DNA of 12,452 nt from a virus (taxonomy: Duplodnaviria; Heunggongvirae; Uroviricota; Caudoviricetes), in IMG/VR virus record IMGVR_UViG_2713896784_000025; one strand, given 5' to 3'. Of the stretch, positions 1,264-12,452 are shown piece after piece. The notes under the pieces are model-generated. The model ran no database searches and was not told the DNA's origin. It saw only the letters and a list, made by a program, of their open reading frames with translations. Position 1 is the first letter of the stretch; the number at the start of each line of letters is the position of its first letter. The position numbers and the translations under genes are program-made.

Positions 1264-2037
1264 ATGACTAAACATATGGACATTCATTGTCAAACACGCA
1301 TATTTAACTCAATTAACCATGACACCAAATATAAAATATGTATTTTTACTCCAAAAAACATTAAAAAAAATAATGCAACTCTTTATATACTTGATGGGAA
1401 TAGTGCCAACAATTACATTTCTGATATTCTGCCTGTTATTGATGCACTACCCAATCCACCAGTGTTAGTTACACTTGGTTATGAATCTTGGAATAACCTT
1501 AGCATTCATCGCCGTGCTTACGATTATACTCCTGATGGTGAAAATGCTATTGTTGATAACTCTAAACCAGCATGGATCTACTTTACTGGTGGAGGAAGCC
1601 AGTCTTTCCGAGAATTATTACTAACTCAGATCATGCCATGGGTTAGTACTATTGCTCCGAACAGTTCCAGAATCGGTATATGGGGACACTCGCTAGGTGC
1701 TATTTTTGTGCTTGATTGCTTAAAAAATAATTCATGCTTTAACTATTATTATATATCTGCACCATCACTTCTATGGCAGAATGAAAGAATCATCAAGATA
1801 ATTAAAGATGATATATCAGAATCAAAGCACACTAAAAGTATATGCTTGCTTAACGGAAATCTTAGCCTTGATTACTCCGCATCTTTATATCCTGAAGCCA
1901 TCAAAGCGGAATCTGTTTTGAGAAATATTTTGACAGAAAAATACAGTAATTTTTCTATTGTACAATTTCCAGAGCTCAATCATCAGGAGACTTTCTCTGC
2001 TGCACTCTGGAATAGCATTATTCATTTCAGCATATAA
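1264..2037 (+). CDS. Esterase-family alpha/beta hydrolase (siderophore-esterase-like 'putative esterase' fold), 257 aa, on an AT-rich island
   Basis: ATG at 1264 preceded by GGGGAGA; stop at 2037. Motif string YILDGNSA ... GGGSQSFRELL ... IGIWGHSLGAIFVL ... YISAPSLLW matches the esterase-family pattern with a G-H-S-x-G nucleophile elbow. No N-terminal signal peptide. Gene and flanks are far more AT-rich than the rest of the window. Confidence 0.8.
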   Translation: MTKHMDIHCQTRIFNSINHDTKYKICIFTPKNIKKNNATLYILDGNSANNYISDILPVIDALPNPPVLVTLGYESWNNLSIHRRAYDYTPDGENAIVDNSKPAWIYFTGGGSQSFRELLLTQIMPWVSTIAPNSSRIGIWGHSLGAIFVLDCLKNNSCFNYYYISAPSLLWQNERIIKIIKDDISESKHTKSICLLNGNLSLDYSASLYPEAIKAESVLRNILTEKYSNFSIVQFPELNHQETFSAALWNSIIHFSI

Positions 2038-3121: not shown

Positions 3122-3171
3122 NNNNNNNNNNNNNNNNNNNNNNNNNNNNNNNNNNNNNNNNNNNNNNNNNN

Positions 3172-6145: not shown

Positions 6146-6571
6146 TTAATGCACAGCCAGAGTGTTTCCTGCCGGGCCACCACGATTCATCTGATCGAAC
6201 AGAACGATCGCTGATGCAACGAAATCATCAATATCTTTCACCAGCCGTTCCTTCGTCTCTACCAACTCCCGAAAATAAGCGGAACTGTGGCTGCGCATTC
6301 GGGCCACCAGCGGAGGCGGCATCGCTTTTTCGATCGCTGGTAACAACGCCTGAATTTTTTTAACCGCATCAGGAGTGTCTTTCTCCACCCAGCGGAAAAT
6401 TTTCTGAGTATTGCGAGCCATGGCTTCCGGATGGCTGTCGTCATACAGTTCCGGGAACGTCATTCCCAGCTCGAAATACGCTTTGGTAATTTTCGCAGCC
6501 GGTACTTTTTCGCCGTCCGGATGCGCCCAGGCATTCATCGCCATGCGGATGTGTTCATGCTTGATTTTCAT
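6146..6571 (-). CDS. YdaT-like protein (Rac prophage ydaT position), 141 aa
   Basis: ATG at 6571 with GGAG 8 nt upstream; its first 17 nt overlap the end of the Cro-like gene. Begins MKIKHEHI..., which matches my recollection of E. coli YdaT in start, length and position, but this is unverified. Confidence 0.65.
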   Translation of the reverse strand: MKIKHEHIRMAMNAWAHPDGEKVPAAKITKAYFELGMTFPELYDDSHPEAMARNTQKIFRWVEKDTPDAVKKIQALLPAIEKAMPPPLVARMRSHSSAYFRELVETKERLVKDIDDFVASAIVLFDQMNRGGPAGNTLAVH

Positions 6572-6827
6572 GAATCAACTCCGGCGCATTTGATGTGTTA
6601 ACCTTACATCCAACAGGTAAACCGTCGGTTGGGTTAGGATAAATATCTGGGCGGATTTCATGCGGGGTAACTTCCCACTTCATTAGTTGGCATAACGGAA
6701 TTACCTGCTTTGGGGGAACGCCAAAGCTAAACCATTGCCAAACAGTCTGTTGAGCGACCCCCATATAACGACCTATTTCAGCCTGAGTGTATTTCTGCCT
6801 AATTTTTTCGCGAGTGCTATCTAGCAT
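6555..6827 (-). CDS. Cro-like / YdaS-type HTH regulator, 90 aa
   Basis: ATG at 6827 with strong AGAGGAGGG upstream. HTH segment QAEIGRYMGVAQQTVWQW; transcribed divergently from the repressor gene. Confidence 0.8.
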   Translation of the reverse strand: MLDSTREKIRQKYTQAEIGRYMGVAQQTVWQWFSFGVPPKQVIPLCQLMKWEVTPHEIRPDIYPNPTDGLPVGCKVNTSNAPELIHENQA

Positions 6828-6860
6828 TTTGCCCTCCTCTAAAAACTATAAGCAAAGCCT

Positions 6861-6899
6861 ACAATAAAAAACTGTATGCAATCAACAGTTTTTTATTGT
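6861..6899. promoter_or_regulatory. Operator: perfect inverted repeat ACAATAAAAAACTGT-(9 nt)-ACAGTTTTTTATTGT in the divergent intergenic region (OR-like)
   Basis: Arms at 6861-6875 and 6885-6899 are exact reverse complements; they sit between the Cro-like start (6827) and the repressor start (6936). Confidence 0.6.
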
Positions 6900-6935
6900 G
6901 ATGCTTTTAACAGTATTTACCTGTAAAATTGAATA

Positions 6936-7337
6936 ATGATGAGCGCCCTAGAAGTATCTATGTACAGAATCAGCAAGCTTCTTCAGGAAACTGGATGGAG
7001 CCAGGCTGAGCTTGCCCGTAGAATTGGTGTGACACAACAAACTGTTCAACAATGGGTCAGCGGTAAGGCTACACCTAAAGCCTCAAGTTTGGATAAACTG
7101 GTTGAGGTTTCAGGGCATCCATTGCATTGGTTTTTATTGCCTCCTGAAGAGTGTGAGCAAATTTTCACCCCTGACACGATGAAAATTGGTCCTCGCCAAC
7201 GCGAACTGCTCCAAGCTTTTAGTGCGTTTCCTGAGGAAGACCAAGAAAAAATGCTTCAAGAAATCAAAGACAAGAAAAAATCAATGGAAGAAACCATTGC
7301 TAGGTGGCTGGCGGCACAAAAAAGCCGCCGGGCGTGA
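6936..7337 (+). CDS. Prophage repressor, short XRE-family HTH protein (DicA/RacR-like; possibly PaaR2-like), 133 aa
   Basis: HTH WSQAELARRIGVTQQTVQQWVSG; C-terminal tail (PRQRELLQAFSAFPEEDQEKMLQEIKDKK...) is laid out like DicA as I recall it; no S24 peptidase domain. No clear ribosome-binding site at 6936, so possibly leaderless; 6960 is an alternative ATG. Confidence 0.85.
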   Translation: MMSALEVSMYRISKLLQETGWSQAELARRIGVTQQTVQQWVSGKATPKASSLDKLVEVSGHPLHWFLLPPEECEQIFTPDTMKIGPRQRELLQAFSAFPEEDQEKMLQEIKDKKKSMEETIARWLAAQKSRRA

Positions 7338-7364: not shown

Positions 7365-7556
7365 ATGGGTACAGCCCTTTCTCCGATAGTTTCAGAATTC
7401 GAAACTACCGAACAAGAAAACAGTTACAACGAATGGTTGCGCACTAAAGTAACGTCAAGCCTTGCAGACACTCGCCCCGCAATTCCACATGACGAGGTAA
7501 TGGCTGAAATGGAAAATCTTATTGCTCAAATTGCTGTAACTAACAAGAGCGAGTAA
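7365..7556 (+). CDS. paaA2: Type II antitoxin partner of ParE (PaaA2-like), 63 aa
   Basis: GGAG ribosome-binding site; stop TAA overlaps the ATG of the downstream toxin (TAATG). Size and sequence (SEFETTEQENSYNEWLRTKVTSSLADTRPAIPHDEV) fit my recollection of PaaA2; symbol is tentative. Confidence 0.7.
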   Translation: MGTALSPIVSEFETTEQENSYNEWLRTKVTSSLADTRPAIPHDEVMAEMENLIAQIAVTNKSE

Positions 7557-7843
7557 TGTTACCCATTTTATGGCTACCGTCTGCTCGCGATGATTTGCGC
7601 CAGATCATAACTTACATCGCCAAGGAGAACCCACCGGCAGCACGTAGACTAAAAATACGCATTGAAACATCGGTATTACCTCTATCTGAGCATCCGTACT
7701 TATATCCACCAAGCGAACGGGTTTCTGGATTGAGAGAGATCGTGACCCACCCTAACTACATAATCCTGTACAGAGTAGCTGCTTCAAGCATTGAGATTGT
7801 AAGCGTGACACATTCTCGGCGACAATTTCCCTTCTCTATCTGA
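7556..7843 (+). CDS. parE: ParE/RelE-superfamily toxin (ParE2-like), 95 aa
   Basis: MLPILWLPSARDDLRQIITYIAKENPPAARRL...LSEHPYLYPPSERVSGLREIVTHPNYIILYRV: the characteristic ParE N-terminal helix and core. Translationally coupled to the antitoxin. Confidence 0.85.
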   Translation: MLPILWLPSARDDLRQIITYIAKENPPAARRLKIRIETSVLPLSEHPYLYPPSERVSGLREIVTHPNYIILYRVAASSIEIVSVTHSRRQFPFSI

Positions 7844-7933: not shown

Positions 7934-8125
7934 TAGATTACATACACCAACCACCCACCCCGCCCCACAGAACGCCGGGCAATACTTCGAGTTACCAAGC
8001 AGTGGTCAGGGGGTAAGTAGCCAGCCCGAGGCGTATGAACATGACGGCAGGGTTCAACTTTAATAACTATGCAGCNNNNNNNNNNNNNNNNNNNNNNNNN
8101 NNNNNNNNNNNNNNNNNNNNNNNNN

Positions 8126-9281: not shown

Positions 9282-9367
9282 GGCGCGGCGGTAAGTATGG
9301 CGGGGTTATTCTTTCCCCGTTGAGGACACCGGGTTGTCAGGTTGACCATACGCTTAAGTGACAACCC
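9282..9367. other. Cluster of three GC-rich hairpins in non-coding DNA
   Basis: CCGCG-aaatgg-CGCGG (9282-9297), CGGGG-(9 nt)-CCCCG (9301-9319), GGGTTGTCA-(19 nt)-TGACAACCC (9331-9367, perfect 9-bp stem). Confidence 0.35.
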
Positions 9368-9404
9368 CGCTGCAACGCCCTCTGTTATCAATATTCTGGT
9401 GACA

Positions 9405-9451
9405 TTTGGCGGTATCAGTTTTACTCCGTAACTGCTCTGCCGCCCTTTTTT
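9405..9451 (+). terminator. Weak intrinsic-terminator-like element (plus strand)
   Basis: GGCGG ... CTGCCGCC with a long loop, followed by TTTTTT at 9446-9451. Confidence 0.25.
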
Positions 9452-9630: not shown

Positions 9631-9819
9631 ATGGAAAAGTTATCATGTAATGCCAGCACGTCTGAACTTCGTTTCGAAATTGGCGTTATCACTGGAGACA
9701 AAACATTTATTGAAGACGCCATTAAGCAGAGAAAACTCGAGCAGGACCTGTTAAATGAAGTATGCATTCCTTCAATGCTGGCTCGTCTGGACCTGCTGCA
9801 AAAAGGATATAAACAATGA
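9631..9819 (+). CDS. Hypothetical small protein, 62 aa
   Basis: ATG at 9631 with GAGGA upstream (MEKLSCNASTSELRFEIGVITGDK...); stop overlaps the next start (ATGA). Confidence 0.55.
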   Translation: MEKLSCNASTSELRFEIGVITGDKTFIEDAIKQRKLEQDLLNEVCIPSMLARLDLLQKGYKQ

Positions 9820-10007
9820 ATACAACATTTGCACTCGTTCTGACAGTTTATCTTGTTTCCGGCGAATCTCTTGAGCTGGTGACTGGCTTATACGGTTCAA
9901 TGAAAGAATGCATGGCTGCAGCAGCAGAACAAAAAATTCCCGGTAACTGTTATCCGGTAGATAAAACTACTCACACTAATAATAACGAAATACCGGCAGG
10001 ACTTTAA
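9816..10007 (+). CDS. Small protein with hydrophobic N-terminus (signal-peptide- or membrane-anchor-like), 63 aa
   Basis: MNTTFALVLTVYLVSGESLELV...; translationally coupled to the upstream ORF; AAGGA upstream. Confidence 0.6.
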   Translation: MNTTFALVLTVYLVSGESLELVTGLYGSMKECMAAAAEQKIPGNCYPVDKTTHTNNNEIPAGL

Positions 10008-10100
10008 AACAGCACCGTAATTAATATCCGGTTTCATTTTTATATGCCAGCAATGGCAGGGATTTGTTCACCCTTAAATCTGTAATGAGGTTAAAACACA

Positions 10101-12452
10101 ATGAGTAAAATCTTTATTTGCGCTGCTATTCCTGACGAACAGGCCATAAAAGAAGATAGCGCTGTTGCGGTGGCCACTGCCATTGAAGCCGGTGATGAGC
10201 GTCGCGCACGCGCAAAATTTCACTGGCAATTTCTGGAGCAATTCCCGGCAGCTCAGGACTGCGCTTATAAATTTATTGTCTGCGAGGATAAACCCGGCAT
10301 ACCCCGCCCTGCCCTCGATTCCTGGGATACCGAATATATGCAGGAAAACCGCTGGGATGAGGAGTCAGCTTCCTTTGTACCGGTCGAACCAGAATCCGAT
10401 CCGATGAACGTCAATTTTGACAAGCTGTCCCCTGAAGTACAGAACGCAGTCCTGGTTAAATTCGACACATGCGAAAACATCACCGTTGATATGGTGATTA
10501 GCGCACAGGAATTACTACAGGAAGACATGGCAACATTCGGCGGACATATCGTTGAAGCGTTGATGAAAATGCCAGAAGTTAACGCCATGTATCCTGAACT
10601 TAAACTGCATGCCATCGGGTGGGTTAAGCATAAATGTGAGCCTGGCGCTAAATGGCCTGAAATTCAGGCAGAGATGCGCATCTGGAAAAAACGTCGCGAA
10701 GGTGAACGCAAGGAAACCGGAAAATACACGTCTGTTGTTGATCTCGCCCGCGCCAGAGTCAACCAACAGAACCCTGAAAACGCTGCTGAAAAAACCGGGG
10801 CTGTCACTGTTGCCATTCGCCGCGAATACAAACAGACATGGAAAACACTCGACAATGAACTGGCCTGCGCCCTCTGGCCCGGTGATGTGGATGCAGGAAA
10901 CATTGACGGTACCATCCATCGCTGGGCGACAAATGAGGTTATCGACAAGGATCGCGAAGACTGGAAGCGTATCTCAGCATCAATGCGCAAACAGCCCGAA
11001 GCACTTGGCTATGACCGTCAGACTATTTTTGGCCTTGTTCGCGAACGTCCGATCGATATTCACAAAGATCCCGTTGCACTGAACAAATATATCAGTGAAT
11101 ACCTGACGACAAAGGGCGTGTTTGAACATGAAGAAACAGACCAGAGCTCTACTGATGCTCTCCAGCCGTCAGCAGCACAAACTGCTCCAGTGGAGACGGC
11201 AGAATCCGATACTCAAAAAAATGAAATCCTGGTGGAAGCTGAACCATCTGTAGAGCGTGAAGGACCATTTTATTTCGTCTTTACCGATAAGGGCGGGGAA
11301 AAATACGGCAGGGCAAACAAACTTTCTGGTCTGGACAAGGCGCTGGCTGCCGGCGGTACCGAAATCTCAAAAGAAGAATATTTTGCCCGAAAAAATGGCA
11401 CATACACGGGCTTACCGCAAAATGTGGATACCGCTGAAGATTCCGAACAATCAGAGCCGGTAAAAGTTACCGCTGACGAAGTAAACAAAATTATGCAGGC
11501 AGCCAATATCAGCCAGCCTGACGCCGATAAATTGCTTGCTGCATCACGTGGTGAATTTGTTGAAGGGATTAGCGACCCGAATGATCCGAAATGGGTGAAA
11601 GGGATCCAGAGTCGCGACGCTGAGGACCAGAATCAGCCCAACGTGAAACAAAATGAGCCAGAAGCGGAACAAAACAGCCCGGATACGCAACAAAACGGGC
11701 CAGAAGAACAACAACCAGAACCAGCAGTGCAACAGGAACTGGAAAAAGTTTGCACCGCATGCGGTCAGACCGGTGGCGGCAACTGTCCTGACTGTGGTGC
11801 GGTGATGGGGAACGCAACCTACCTGGAAACATTCGATGAAGAGAATCAGGCTGAAGCTCAGAAAAATGATCCGGAGGAAATGGAAGGCACTGAACATCTG
11901 CACAAGGAGAACACTGGCAGCGATCAGTATCACGCCAGCGATAATAAAACTGGCGAAACAGCAAATCCCTTAATTAAAGTGAACGGTCATCATGAAATCT
12001 CATCCACCAGCAGGTTGTGGCACCATCTGATGATTGACCTTGAAACAATGGGAAAAAATCCTGATGCGCCAATAAACTCTATAGCCGGTAAGTTTTTTGA
12101 TCCGGCAACCGGAGAGATGGGGCCAGAATTCAGCAAAACTATCGATCTGGAAACCGCAGGTGGGGTCATCGATCGGGACACCATTAAGTGGTGGCTGAAA
12201 CAGTCACGCGAAGCACAATCCTCCATTCTGACCGATGAAATCACGTTGGATGATGCACTGCTGCAATTCCGGGAATTTATCGACGAAAACTCCGGTGAAT
12301 TTTTTGTTCAGGTCTGGGGTAACGGTGCAACTTTCGACAACGTGATTTTACGCCGTTCATATGAACGGCAGGGGATCCCCTGCCCGTGGCGTTACACCAA
12401 TGATCGCGATGTAAGAACGATGGTTGCTCTGGGACTGGTGATGGATTTCGAC
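10101..12452 (+). CDS. recE: RecE-like large recombination exonuclease (exonuclease VIII family), 3'-truncated by window end, at least 784 aa
   Basis: Uninterrupted frame from ATG 10101 to the window end (I translated it codon by codon); absent from the ORF track only because no stop is reached. Internal CxxC-x8-CxxC zinc ribbon (VCTACGQTGGGNCPDCG), Q/E/P-rich linkers, and a C-terminal DEDD-type exonuclease motif (MIDLETMG). The RecE assignment rests on position in the early-left operon and an unverified recollection of the segment LLAASRGEFVEGISDPNDPKWVKGIQ. Confidence 0.75.
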   Translation, partial: MSKIFICAAIPDEQAIKEDSAVAVATAIEAGDERRARAKFHWQFLEQFPAAQDCAYKFIVCEDKPGIPRPALDSWDTEYMQENRWDEESASFVPVEPESDPMNVNFDKLSPEVQNAVLVKFDTCENITVDMVISAQELLQEDMATFGGHIVEALMKMPEVNAMYPELKLHAIGWVKHKCEPGAKWPEIQAEMRIWKKRREGERKETGKYTSVVDLARARVNQQNPENAAEKTGAVTVAIRREYKQTWKTLDNELACALWPGDVDAGNIDGTIHRWATNEVIDKDREDWKRISASMRKQPEALGYDRQTIFGLVRERPIDIHKDPVALNKYISEYLTTKGVFEHEETDQSSTDALQPSAAQTAPVETAESDTQKNEILVEAEPSVEREGPFYFVFTDKGGEKYGRANKLSGLDKALAAGGTEISKEEYFARKNGTYTGLPQNVDTAEDSEQSEPVKVTADEVNKIMQAANISQPDADKLLAASRGEFVEGISDPNDPKWVKGIQSRDAEDQNQPNVKQNEPEAEQNSPDTQQNGPEEQQPEPAVQQELEKVCTACGQTGGGNCPDCGAVMGNATYLETFDEENQAEAQKNDPEEMEGTEHLHKENTGSDQYHASDNKTGETANPLIKVNGHHEISSTSRLWHHLMIDLETMGKNPDAPINSIAGKFFDPATGEMGPEFSKTIDLETAGGVIDRDTIKWWLKQSREAQSSILTDEITLDDALLQFREFIDENSGEFFVQVWGNGATFDNVILRRSYERQGIPCPWRYTNDRDVRTMVALGLVMDFD

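Follow-up and report, generated by a model that had tools for sequence, protein, structure and literature searches.

The RecE protein of the Rac prophage (b1350) is a 5'-3' nuclease of the PD-(D/E)XK type, in which an N-terminal Exonuc_VIII domain (PF06630) and a central non-catalytic scaffold at amino acids (aa) ~200-590 precede the nuclease domain (PF12684, aa ~606-866). In Rac, as in Salmonella phage SPN3UB, recE is directly followed by recT, which is the classical arrangement. A different catalytic fold is found in the DEDDh exonucleases of the family PF16473. DexA of phage T4, gp34 of phage epsilon34 and the E. coli protein EcD are standalone proteins of ~180-227 aa, and Rv2179c of M. tuberculosis, a standalone bacterial RNase and the name-giver of the family, was reportedly described by Abendroth et al. 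in 2014 as a 3'-5' exoribonuclease. Here we analyse a gene at the end of a 12,452 nucleotide (nt) stretch of DNA (the window) from the IMG/VR virus record IMGVR_UViG_2713896784_000025 (Caudoviricetes). It encodes an 823-aa prophage protein that, like Rac RecE, is large and acidic, comes from the early-left operon of a lambdoid prophage, contains a homologous central scaffold and has its C-terminal catalytic domain behind an acidic linker. Unlike RecE, it carries a predicted DEDDh 3'-5' nuclease instead of the PD-(D/E)XK 5'-3' nuclease and an N-terminal module, termed N1, instead of PF06630, and no recT accompanies it. With a probability of roughly 65%, we interpret the protein as a RecE-family non-catalytic scaffold joined to a DEDDh (DnaQ/DexA/Rv2179c-type) 3'-5' exonuclease that would act on DNA ends without a dedicated annealase.

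The reading frame starts with ATG and is translated on the plus strand over 784 codons with zero stops, which bears out the claim of a preliminary description of this DNA, made from the letters alone, that a frame of at least 784 codons runs uninterrupted to the window end. As 3 of the 64 codons are stops, simple arithmetic puts the chance of such a stretch at about (61/64)^784 = 5e-17. The gene is missing from the list of open reading frames (ORFs) because this list leaves out ORFs that run past the window end. Many E. coli O157:H7 chromosomes contain the 2352-nt stretch with 100% identity, the entire window is ~100% identical to the lambdoid prophage adjoining yccA in E. coli O157:H7, and 319 records match the gene at 99% identity or more. 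These identical records supply the contig extension that the preliminary description had proposed as a check. They annotate the gene as 'exonuclease' (WP_000034457.1, 823 aa) and end it 120 nt past the window, so that the final 39 codons and the stop codon fall outside. The full protein matches phrog_2082 from end to end (1-823 of 823, E = 0), and precomputed Pfam lists for the identical protein (P0001) contain PF27430, PF16473 and PF27432. Judged by its sequence, the region is the intact orthologue of the K-12 pseudogene ydfE, represented by the first 95% of the gene. The gene and the segments of its product are as follows.

10087..10090, plus strand: GAGG Shine-Dalgarno-like motif, 10 nt ahead of the ATG, read from the sequence
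10101..12452, plus strand: coding sequence for aa 1-784 of the 823-aa prophage 'exonuclease' WP_000034457.1 (open frame, identical annotated gene)
10101..10505, plus strand: N1 module, aa 1-135, a small alpha/beta unit and the start of a helical unit (phrog_5943, phrog_31653; AlphaFold2 (AF2) predicted local distance difference test (pLDDT) ~72-86)
10506..11135, plus strand: N2 scaffold core, aa 136-345, common to RecE (~aa 200-440; BLASTP to Rac and SPN3UB RecE)
11136..11252, plus strand: linker 1, aa 346-384, acidic and S/T/Q-rich, predicted disordered (composition; pLDDT <50)
11253..11615, plus strand: middle module, aa 385-505, with a beta-hairpin/helix unit at aa 386-435 (AF2 pLDDT 77-85)
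11616..11741, plus strand: linker 2, aa 506-547, Q/N/E/P-rich (93% polar/low-complexity residues in 511-540)
11742..11825, plus strand: Cys4 motif, putative zinc ribbon, aa 548-575 (conserved in Rac RecE; AF2 confidence ~50)
11826..11990, plus strand: linker 3, aa 576-630, strongly acidic (net charge -6 to -9 per 30 residues)
11991..12452, plus strand, cut at aa 784: predicted DEDDh 3'-5' exonuclease domain, aa 631-823 (PF16473, Pfam match from aa 641)

On the complete protein, PF16473 is the sole Pfam-A match in the local library, with E = 3.6e-62 and a score of 209.6 bits (cut-off 27), and aa 641-813 span the profile from position 1 to 177 of 177. On the part inside the window the match (E = 1.8e-48) stops at profile position 142. 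In an alignment with the T4-type DexA of phage RB32 and the standalone gp34 of epsilon34, D646, E648, D746, H796 and D801 coincide with DexA D7, E9, D119, H186 and D191 (catalytic residues as listed in PMC12153337, where the second is printed as E12), i.e. all five DEDDh residues are conserved. The Exo I residues D646 and E648 and the Exo II residue D746 lie inside the window, while H796 and D801 of Exo III are encoded in the 39 codons beyond it. A sequence search of the PDB returned 8KEL and 8KEN (E = 1e-6) as the only relatives, the former being T4 DexA and the latter the mutant S87A/D90A of this protein. The domain is 52-53% identical to epsilon34 gp34 and 28-32% identical to T4-type DexA, depending on the alignment. 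With DexA it shares the family, the five catalytic residues and a phage-borne origin; it differs in lacking the DexA-specific insertions and in forming the C-terminal quarter of an 823-aa fusion rather than a standalone protein. The profile match and the conserved residues agree with the DEDD-type exonuclease motif that the preliminary description had placed at the C-terminus and for which it had suggested a domain scan. From this family membership, exonuclease activity with 3'-5' polarity is predicted.

The preceding part of the protein is related to RecE. BLASTP aligns aa 262-625 with residues 278-591 of Rac RecE (E = 4e-59). For aa 474-625, 100 positions are identical over 158 alignment columns, including DKLLAASRGEFV.GISDPNDPKWVKG and CxxC...CxxC, and the identity to SPN3UB RecE is 25% over aa 136-541. 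At the DNA level, one block of homology is found.

11525..11974, plus strand: DNA-level homology block to Rac recE (blastn against K-12 recE, 76% nt identity)

The block corresponds to aa 475-624, aligned with RecE 455-590, and ends abruptly at ...ANPLI in the one protein and ...ADPVI in the other, with the RecE homology ceasing ~15 residues ahead of either catalytic domain. The 3' end of the block marks the junction of a nuclease swap, and the DEDD domain is a replacement of the RecE nuclease rather than a module added to RecE.

Consistent with such a replacement, PF12684 did not match the 823-aa protein at E <= 1, whereas it is found in Rac RecE with E = 4.1e-28 and in SPN3UB RecE with E = 1.6e-11. 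There was likewise no match to the N-terminal PF06630, for which the two RecE proteins reach E = 6.1e-98 and 4.5e-115, respectively. When the 784 aa encoded in the window were compared with the NCBIfam model for exodeoxyribonuclease VIII (NF007259), the score was 260.1 bits, where the cut-off is 1269, and profile positions 446-602 of 877 were covered. The sole RecE feature present is the central non-catalytic scaffold including the Cys4 motif; since the other four of the five tested features (PF12684, PF06630, the NF007259 cut-off and an adjacent recT) are lacking, the protein lies outside RecE sensu stricto. The preliminary description had called the gene RecE-like, which holds for aa 262-625 and the partial NF007259 match but does not extend to the nuclease domain, the PF06630 domain or recT.

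The same description had expected the classical RecE nuclease and recT just beyond the window. The gene would then be a classical recE, in which the frame continues into a PD-(D/E)XK nuclease, recT comes next and the DEDD domain is an internal extra. The homologous central region and the partial NCBIfam match would fit this, as would the many database records named 'exodeoxyribonuclease VIII'. However, the identical gene stops at aa 823, 120 nt past the window, PF12684 and PF06630 are absent and the NCBIfam score is far below its cut-off. In the identical records, the gene is followed by a xis-like DUF4224 gene, a tyrosine integrase gene and then host genes, and neither recT nor a second nuclease domain was found after it in the identical O157:H7 loci. 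In all contexts of the DEDD-type gene that we examined (O157 prophages, Qin, Tritos, 606R7 and 640R1), DUF4224 and the integrase were found downstream, and never recT. The classical RecET reading is refuted by the identical annotated loci and the domain scans, and we give it next to no credence. This has practical consequences, as the labels 'exodeoxyribonuclease VIII' and RecE on this gene are misleading: the predicted polarity is the opposite, the catalytic fold is another one and there is no RecT partner, and for these reasons RecET-type recombineering activity should not be assumed.

The N1 module takes the place that PF06630 has at the N-terminus of RecE-type proteins, and probably corresponds to PF27430, a newer Pfam family, as read from the precomputed domain lists. 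In an AF2 model of aa 1-360 (pLDDT 71), an alpha/beta unit (1-86), a helical unit (101-204) and a helical bundle (245-343) are distinguished. The bundle (AF2 pLDDT 83-91) is the most conserved part of the entire family and probably corresponds to PF27432. The full-length model adds a folded unit at aa 386-435 and leaves the linkers at low confidence. The middle module contains the motif DKLLAASRGEFVEGISDPNDPKWVKG, which is near-identical in the RecE alignment. The cysteines of the Cys4 motif follow the pattern C551-x2-C554-x7-C562-x2-C565 (nt 11751-11795). The composite or fusion architecture given in the preliminary description is thus found as described: the CxxC-x7-CxxC motif is present at C551-C565, with a putative role in zinc binding, low-complexity acidic or Q/N/P-rich stretches occupy aa 346-384, 506-547 and 576-630 and correspond to the Q/E/P-rich linkers, and the C-terminal DEDD domain belongs to the same polypeptide.

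To follow the scaffold beyond this protein, an exhaustive search with aa 1-360 was made, which yielded 174 representatives among 1.84 billion proteins, and domains were mapped on the 69 long representatives sharing the scaffold. In these, the conserved core is never missing. It is combined with N1 or PF06630 as the N-terminal module and with a C-terminal effector that is DEDDh, PD-(D/E)XK or a member of one of three groups lacking a Pfam assignment. Each of the two N-modules occurs with each of the two nuclease types, so that all four combinations are represented. In the largest of the groups without Pfam assignment, 9 of the 12 members have sub-threshold matches to PF04098 at the same motif. 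A profile search starting from this group found standalone Pseudomonas proteins of ~243 aa (E ~1e-65) named 'Rad52/Rad22 family DNA repair protein', some of which have a precomputed PF04098 match. By these matches, the group turned out to carry a Rad52/Rad22-family annealase domain instead of a nuclease. The Rad52-type fusions are ~700-790 aa long (e.g. P0130, P0132, P0139, P0144, P0151, P0156, P0167, P0176, P0178, P0230 and P0247), and one of them (L019 5001-6431) is immediately followed by Sipho_Gp157, a DUF4224 gene and an integrase gene and thus occupies the same chromosomal slot.

The reuse of the scaffold suggests a wider reading, which we regard as possible, if doubtful. The RecE-type scaffold (PF27430 or PF06630 with PF27432, the middle domain and Cys4) might be a general platform of lambdoid phages for interchangeable DNA-end effectors, comprising PD-(D/E)XK, DEDDh, the Rad52-type annealase and two or more modules without assignment, and the DEDDh version might do an undescribed, annealase-independent job. 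This could be a resection of 3' ends by which the DNA ends of phage or host are fed into a host pathway, or else an exclusion linked to induction. If so, an unstudied prophage activity for DNA-end processing would be present in most E. coli strains. Irrespective of this, the non-catalytic part of RecE, long unexplained, is a reusable scaffold, which offers a handle on the role of the RecE N-terminal region.

Several further observations concern the other scaffold proteins. PHROGs label the Rad52-type fusions 'exonuclease' (phrog_2489, phrog_7838), and these fusions may be the nuclease-less 'RecE-2' proteins mentioned in PMC12315714. The scaffold proteins with C-termini outside Pfam include type B (phrog_26058; P0126, P0208, P0216, P0237, P0244, P0248 and P0256) and type C (phrog_11568; P0224, P0228, P0253, P0261 and P0262). 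A relative from Enterobacter cloacae (P0275) has an additional precomputed match to PF17762 and carries the UniRef name ParB/RepB/Spo0J family partition protein.

To see which segments are under selection, the ratio of nonsynonymous to synonymous substitution rates (dN/dS) was calculated by the Nei-Gojobori method against the intact 823-aa orthologues of phage Tritos, E. ruysiae and E. albertii. The overall ratio was 0.17-0.19. Low values were obtained for the Cys4 motif (0.04-0.05, the lowest in the gene), the N1 module (0.08-0.13), the DEDD domain (0.12), the N2 core (0.13-0.14) and the middle domain (0.10-0.18), while linkers 1, 2 and 3 gave 0.77-1.14, 0.34-0.41 and 0.64-0.68, respectively. 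The difference between the folded segments (0.04-0.18) and the linkers (0.34-1.14) identifies the frame at 10101-12452 as the coding frame. The pattern is that of a multi-domain protein with disordered linkers and not of a decaying pseudogene.

Broken copies of the gene do exist. In K-12, ydfE of the cryptic Qin prophage (b1577; L004 5079-5999) is cut by IS2E after ~255 codons, with 89% identity over these 255 aa, a Shigella flexneri copy (L013) has a premature stop after codon 37, and in strain NZRM4165 (NZ_CP032791.1 3199527-3203191) IS1203 is inserted. These three inactivations are independent of one another. They could be taken to mean that the gene is a functionless remnant of cryptic prophages, and the long frame a pseudogene that is still unbroken. 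Against this stand the intact 823-aa copies in three Escherichia species (E. coli, E. albertii and E. ruysiae) and in several sequenced phage genomes, the dN/dS of 0.17-0.19 overall and 0.04-0.14 in the zinc motif, the core and the DEDD domain, and the preservation of every catalytic residue, which together make a pseudogene highly improbable. Phage genome records carrying the gene are Tritos, HannyBb, PhiR42_1, mEp460_ev081 and Evi. Of 5426 complete E. coli genomes, 3489 (~64%) contain near-full-length copies, which are often located in defective prophages. A scan of genome contigs for the exact gene returned Escherichia and Shigella only, plus one contig of a Veillonella metagenome-assembled genome (MAG). 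On this 'Veillonella parvula' MAG contig (JAGZPX010000007.1, L011), a 60%-identical copy of aa 245-822 is present, and the contig is almost certainly a mis-binned enterobacterial prophage contig.

The genes upstream of the exonuclease belong to the same early-left operon of the dicBF type.

9394..9445, plus strand: DicF small RNA, complete (Rfam RF00039, 76.9 bits)
9631..9819, plus strand: dicB (annotation of the identical region L003)
9816..10007, plus strand: ydfD/DUF1482 (annotation of the identical region L003)

With DicF, dicB and ydfD ahead of it, the exonuclease gene is the distal gene of a dicBF-type operon. The order DicF, dicB, ydfD, exonuclease, xis and int is also found in K-12 Qin, the complete genome of phage Tritos, vB_EcoM-606R7 and vB_EcoS-640R1. 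Between ydfD and the exonuclease gene no convincing promoter or terminator was detected, with nothing above the shuffled expectation. The dicBF operon of Qin is repressed by DicA, and DicF is matured by RNase III and RNase E (PMC10448788). By analogy, the exonuclease would be expressed upon relief of the DicA/CI-like repression, as in induction.

A model for the function can be drawn from these elements. The protein would be made as the product of the last gene before xis-int of the early-left operon (ydfA/B, DicF, dicB, ydfD, exonuclease). The scaffold would bring the nuclease to DNA ends or to recombination events, in the same setting as RecE, and the nuclease would remove nucleotides from free 3' ends, the substrate most probably being DNA ends or 3' tails. 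Hydrolysis would follow a two-metal-ion, Mg2+-dependent mechanism via D646, E648, D746 and D801, with H796 as the general base. More probably, the substrate is DNA rather than RNA, because the characterised nearest relatives DexA and EcD are DNA exonucleases and the other partners of the scaffold are DNA nucleases and an annealase. The standalone DEDDh gene of phage epsilon34, which is 52% identical, lies between SSB and Abc2 in a recombination module, and this arrangement is accepted in PMC12315714 as a Rec module with a DnaQ-like nuclease.

Several points weigh against a scaffold-bound DNA-end exonuclease of this kind. According to PMC12315714, 3'-5' DNA exonucleases usually inhibit homologous recombination, and DnaQ-type nuclease genes near int are not counted there as members of Rec modules. 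No gene for an annealase, SSB or anti-RecBCD protein was found beside the exonuclease in the contexts examined (O157 loci, Qin, Tritos, 606R7 and 640R1). Comparison of the scaffold units with the PDB and with predicted viral structures gave no informative fold match, and the full-length AF2 model, calculated from a shallow alignment dominated by E. coli, left aa 561-823 at pLDDT <50. Finally, PF16473 is named after the exoribonuclease Rv2179c, which leaves RNA as a possible substrate.

This last point leads to the alternative that the protein is an Rv2179c-like 3'-5' exoribonuclease, which might process the dicBF transcript or degrade host or phage RNAs after induction. The domain has the Pfam family and the DEDDh chemistry in common with Rv2179c, the family name reads 'Rv2179c-like 3'-5' exoribonuclease', and NCBI uses '3'-5' exoribonuclease' for many copies. 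The Tritos orthologue has a weak RNase_T match (E = 4e-4), and the gene lies within an operon whose transcript is processed to DicF. On the other hand, RNase III and RNase E already account for the maturation of DicF (PMC10448788), the PDB sequence search at E <= 1 found DexA and not Rv2179c, and Rv2179c is a standalone bacterial RNase, whereas the context of the prophage gene is phage DNA metabolism. As the standalone homologues are located in DNA recombination modules and the scaffold is common to DNA nucleases and an annealase, we judge a role in RNA turnover to be quite unlikely.

The relationship to DexA allows a second alternative, namely an anti-phage defence of the HREX type, in which the DEDDh domain would degrade modified DNA, e.g. 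DNA with 5-hydroxymethylcytosine (5hmC), of superinfecting T-even phages to the benefit of the lysogen. EcD, a standalone DexA homologue of E. coli, degrades the 5hmC DNA of T4 and protects cells (PMC12153337), and the prophage domain belongs to the same DexA family. DicB from the same operon protects against phages (PMC6832061), and the abundance of near-full-length copies among the complete E. coli genomes, where they often belong to defective prophages and are under purifying selection, would also suit a defence gene. The details of the domain fit less well. Compared with EcD (HAK9828821.1; residue numbering as printed in PMC12153337), the prophage domain appears to retain an aspartate, D718, at the position of the tetramer-forming DexA D90, the loss of which (A78 in EcD) defines the EcD type; the equivalent of DexA S87 is Thr715 in the alignment. 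At the position of DexA W152, which is needed for 5hmC recognition, the protein has Thr766, while a tyrosine is found in Tritos and a tryptophan in epsilon34. The equivalent of the acidic D169, likewise involved in 5hmC recognition, is an aspartate in the HMMER alignment and a valine in the MAFFT alignment. In addition, the protein is an 823-aa fusion and not a standalone protein of ~200 aa, its scaffold is common to recombination proteins, and repression of the operon by DicA in most lysogenic cells is a poor fit to a constitutive defence gene. No match was found in PADLOC-DB 2023, a library older than HREX. Defence thus appears unlikely, and a DEDDh exonuclease acting on DNA ends from a RecE-type scaffold remains our preferred interpretation. 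A defence role (HREX) was recently proposed for the DexA family, and the candidate functions of this widespread prophage gene are recombination, defence and the turnover of RNA.

Neither the exact sequence nor its PHROG and Pfam families are new, and DnaQ-type nuclease genes close to int have been recorded before, so that the gene is known at the annotation level. In the literature, no functional study was found on ydfE or on Rv2179c-type proteins in prophages, which supports the view of the preliminary description that such fusions are widely annotated and poorly characterised. In the main-text passages of PMC12315714 that were examined, no fusion between a RecE scaffold and a DEDDh domain is described, and the paper leaves the role of the DnaQ-type genes open.

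Two Chi sequences (GCTGGTGG) are located on the minus strand of the window at 12004-12011 and 6304-6311, one of them within the exonuclease gene. This does not amount to a significant enrichment in the window, since two sites were reached in 8 of 200 shuffles; in PMC12315714, enrichment of Chi sites is reported for Rec-less lambdoid phages.

Some features elsewhere in the window were also noted. In the immunity region, a gene for a CI/DicA-like repressor (6936-7337) lies directly upstream of a small ORF (7365-7556, plus strand) and a gene for a RelE/ParE-family toxin (7556-7843, plus strand), and the pair at 7365-7843 is likely a toxin-antitoxin system. Positions 1001-2500 form an island of low G+C content (32-36% compared with ~47-55% around it), which contains an alpha/beta hydrolase gene (1264-2037, plus strand) in opposite orientation to its neighbours. 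The island resembles a moron that has inserted between the replication genes and the region of hokD. Three runs of 50 N (722-771, 3122-3171 and 8076-8125) take the place of 280, 99 and 172 bp, respectively, in the source prophage, corresponding to 6722-7001, 9352-9450 and 14355-14526 of L003. The hokD toxin gene is lost to the first run and most of ydfA to the third, the second is inside a DUF1627 gene, and none touches the exonuclease gene. The runs resemble deliberate masking more than assembly gaps.

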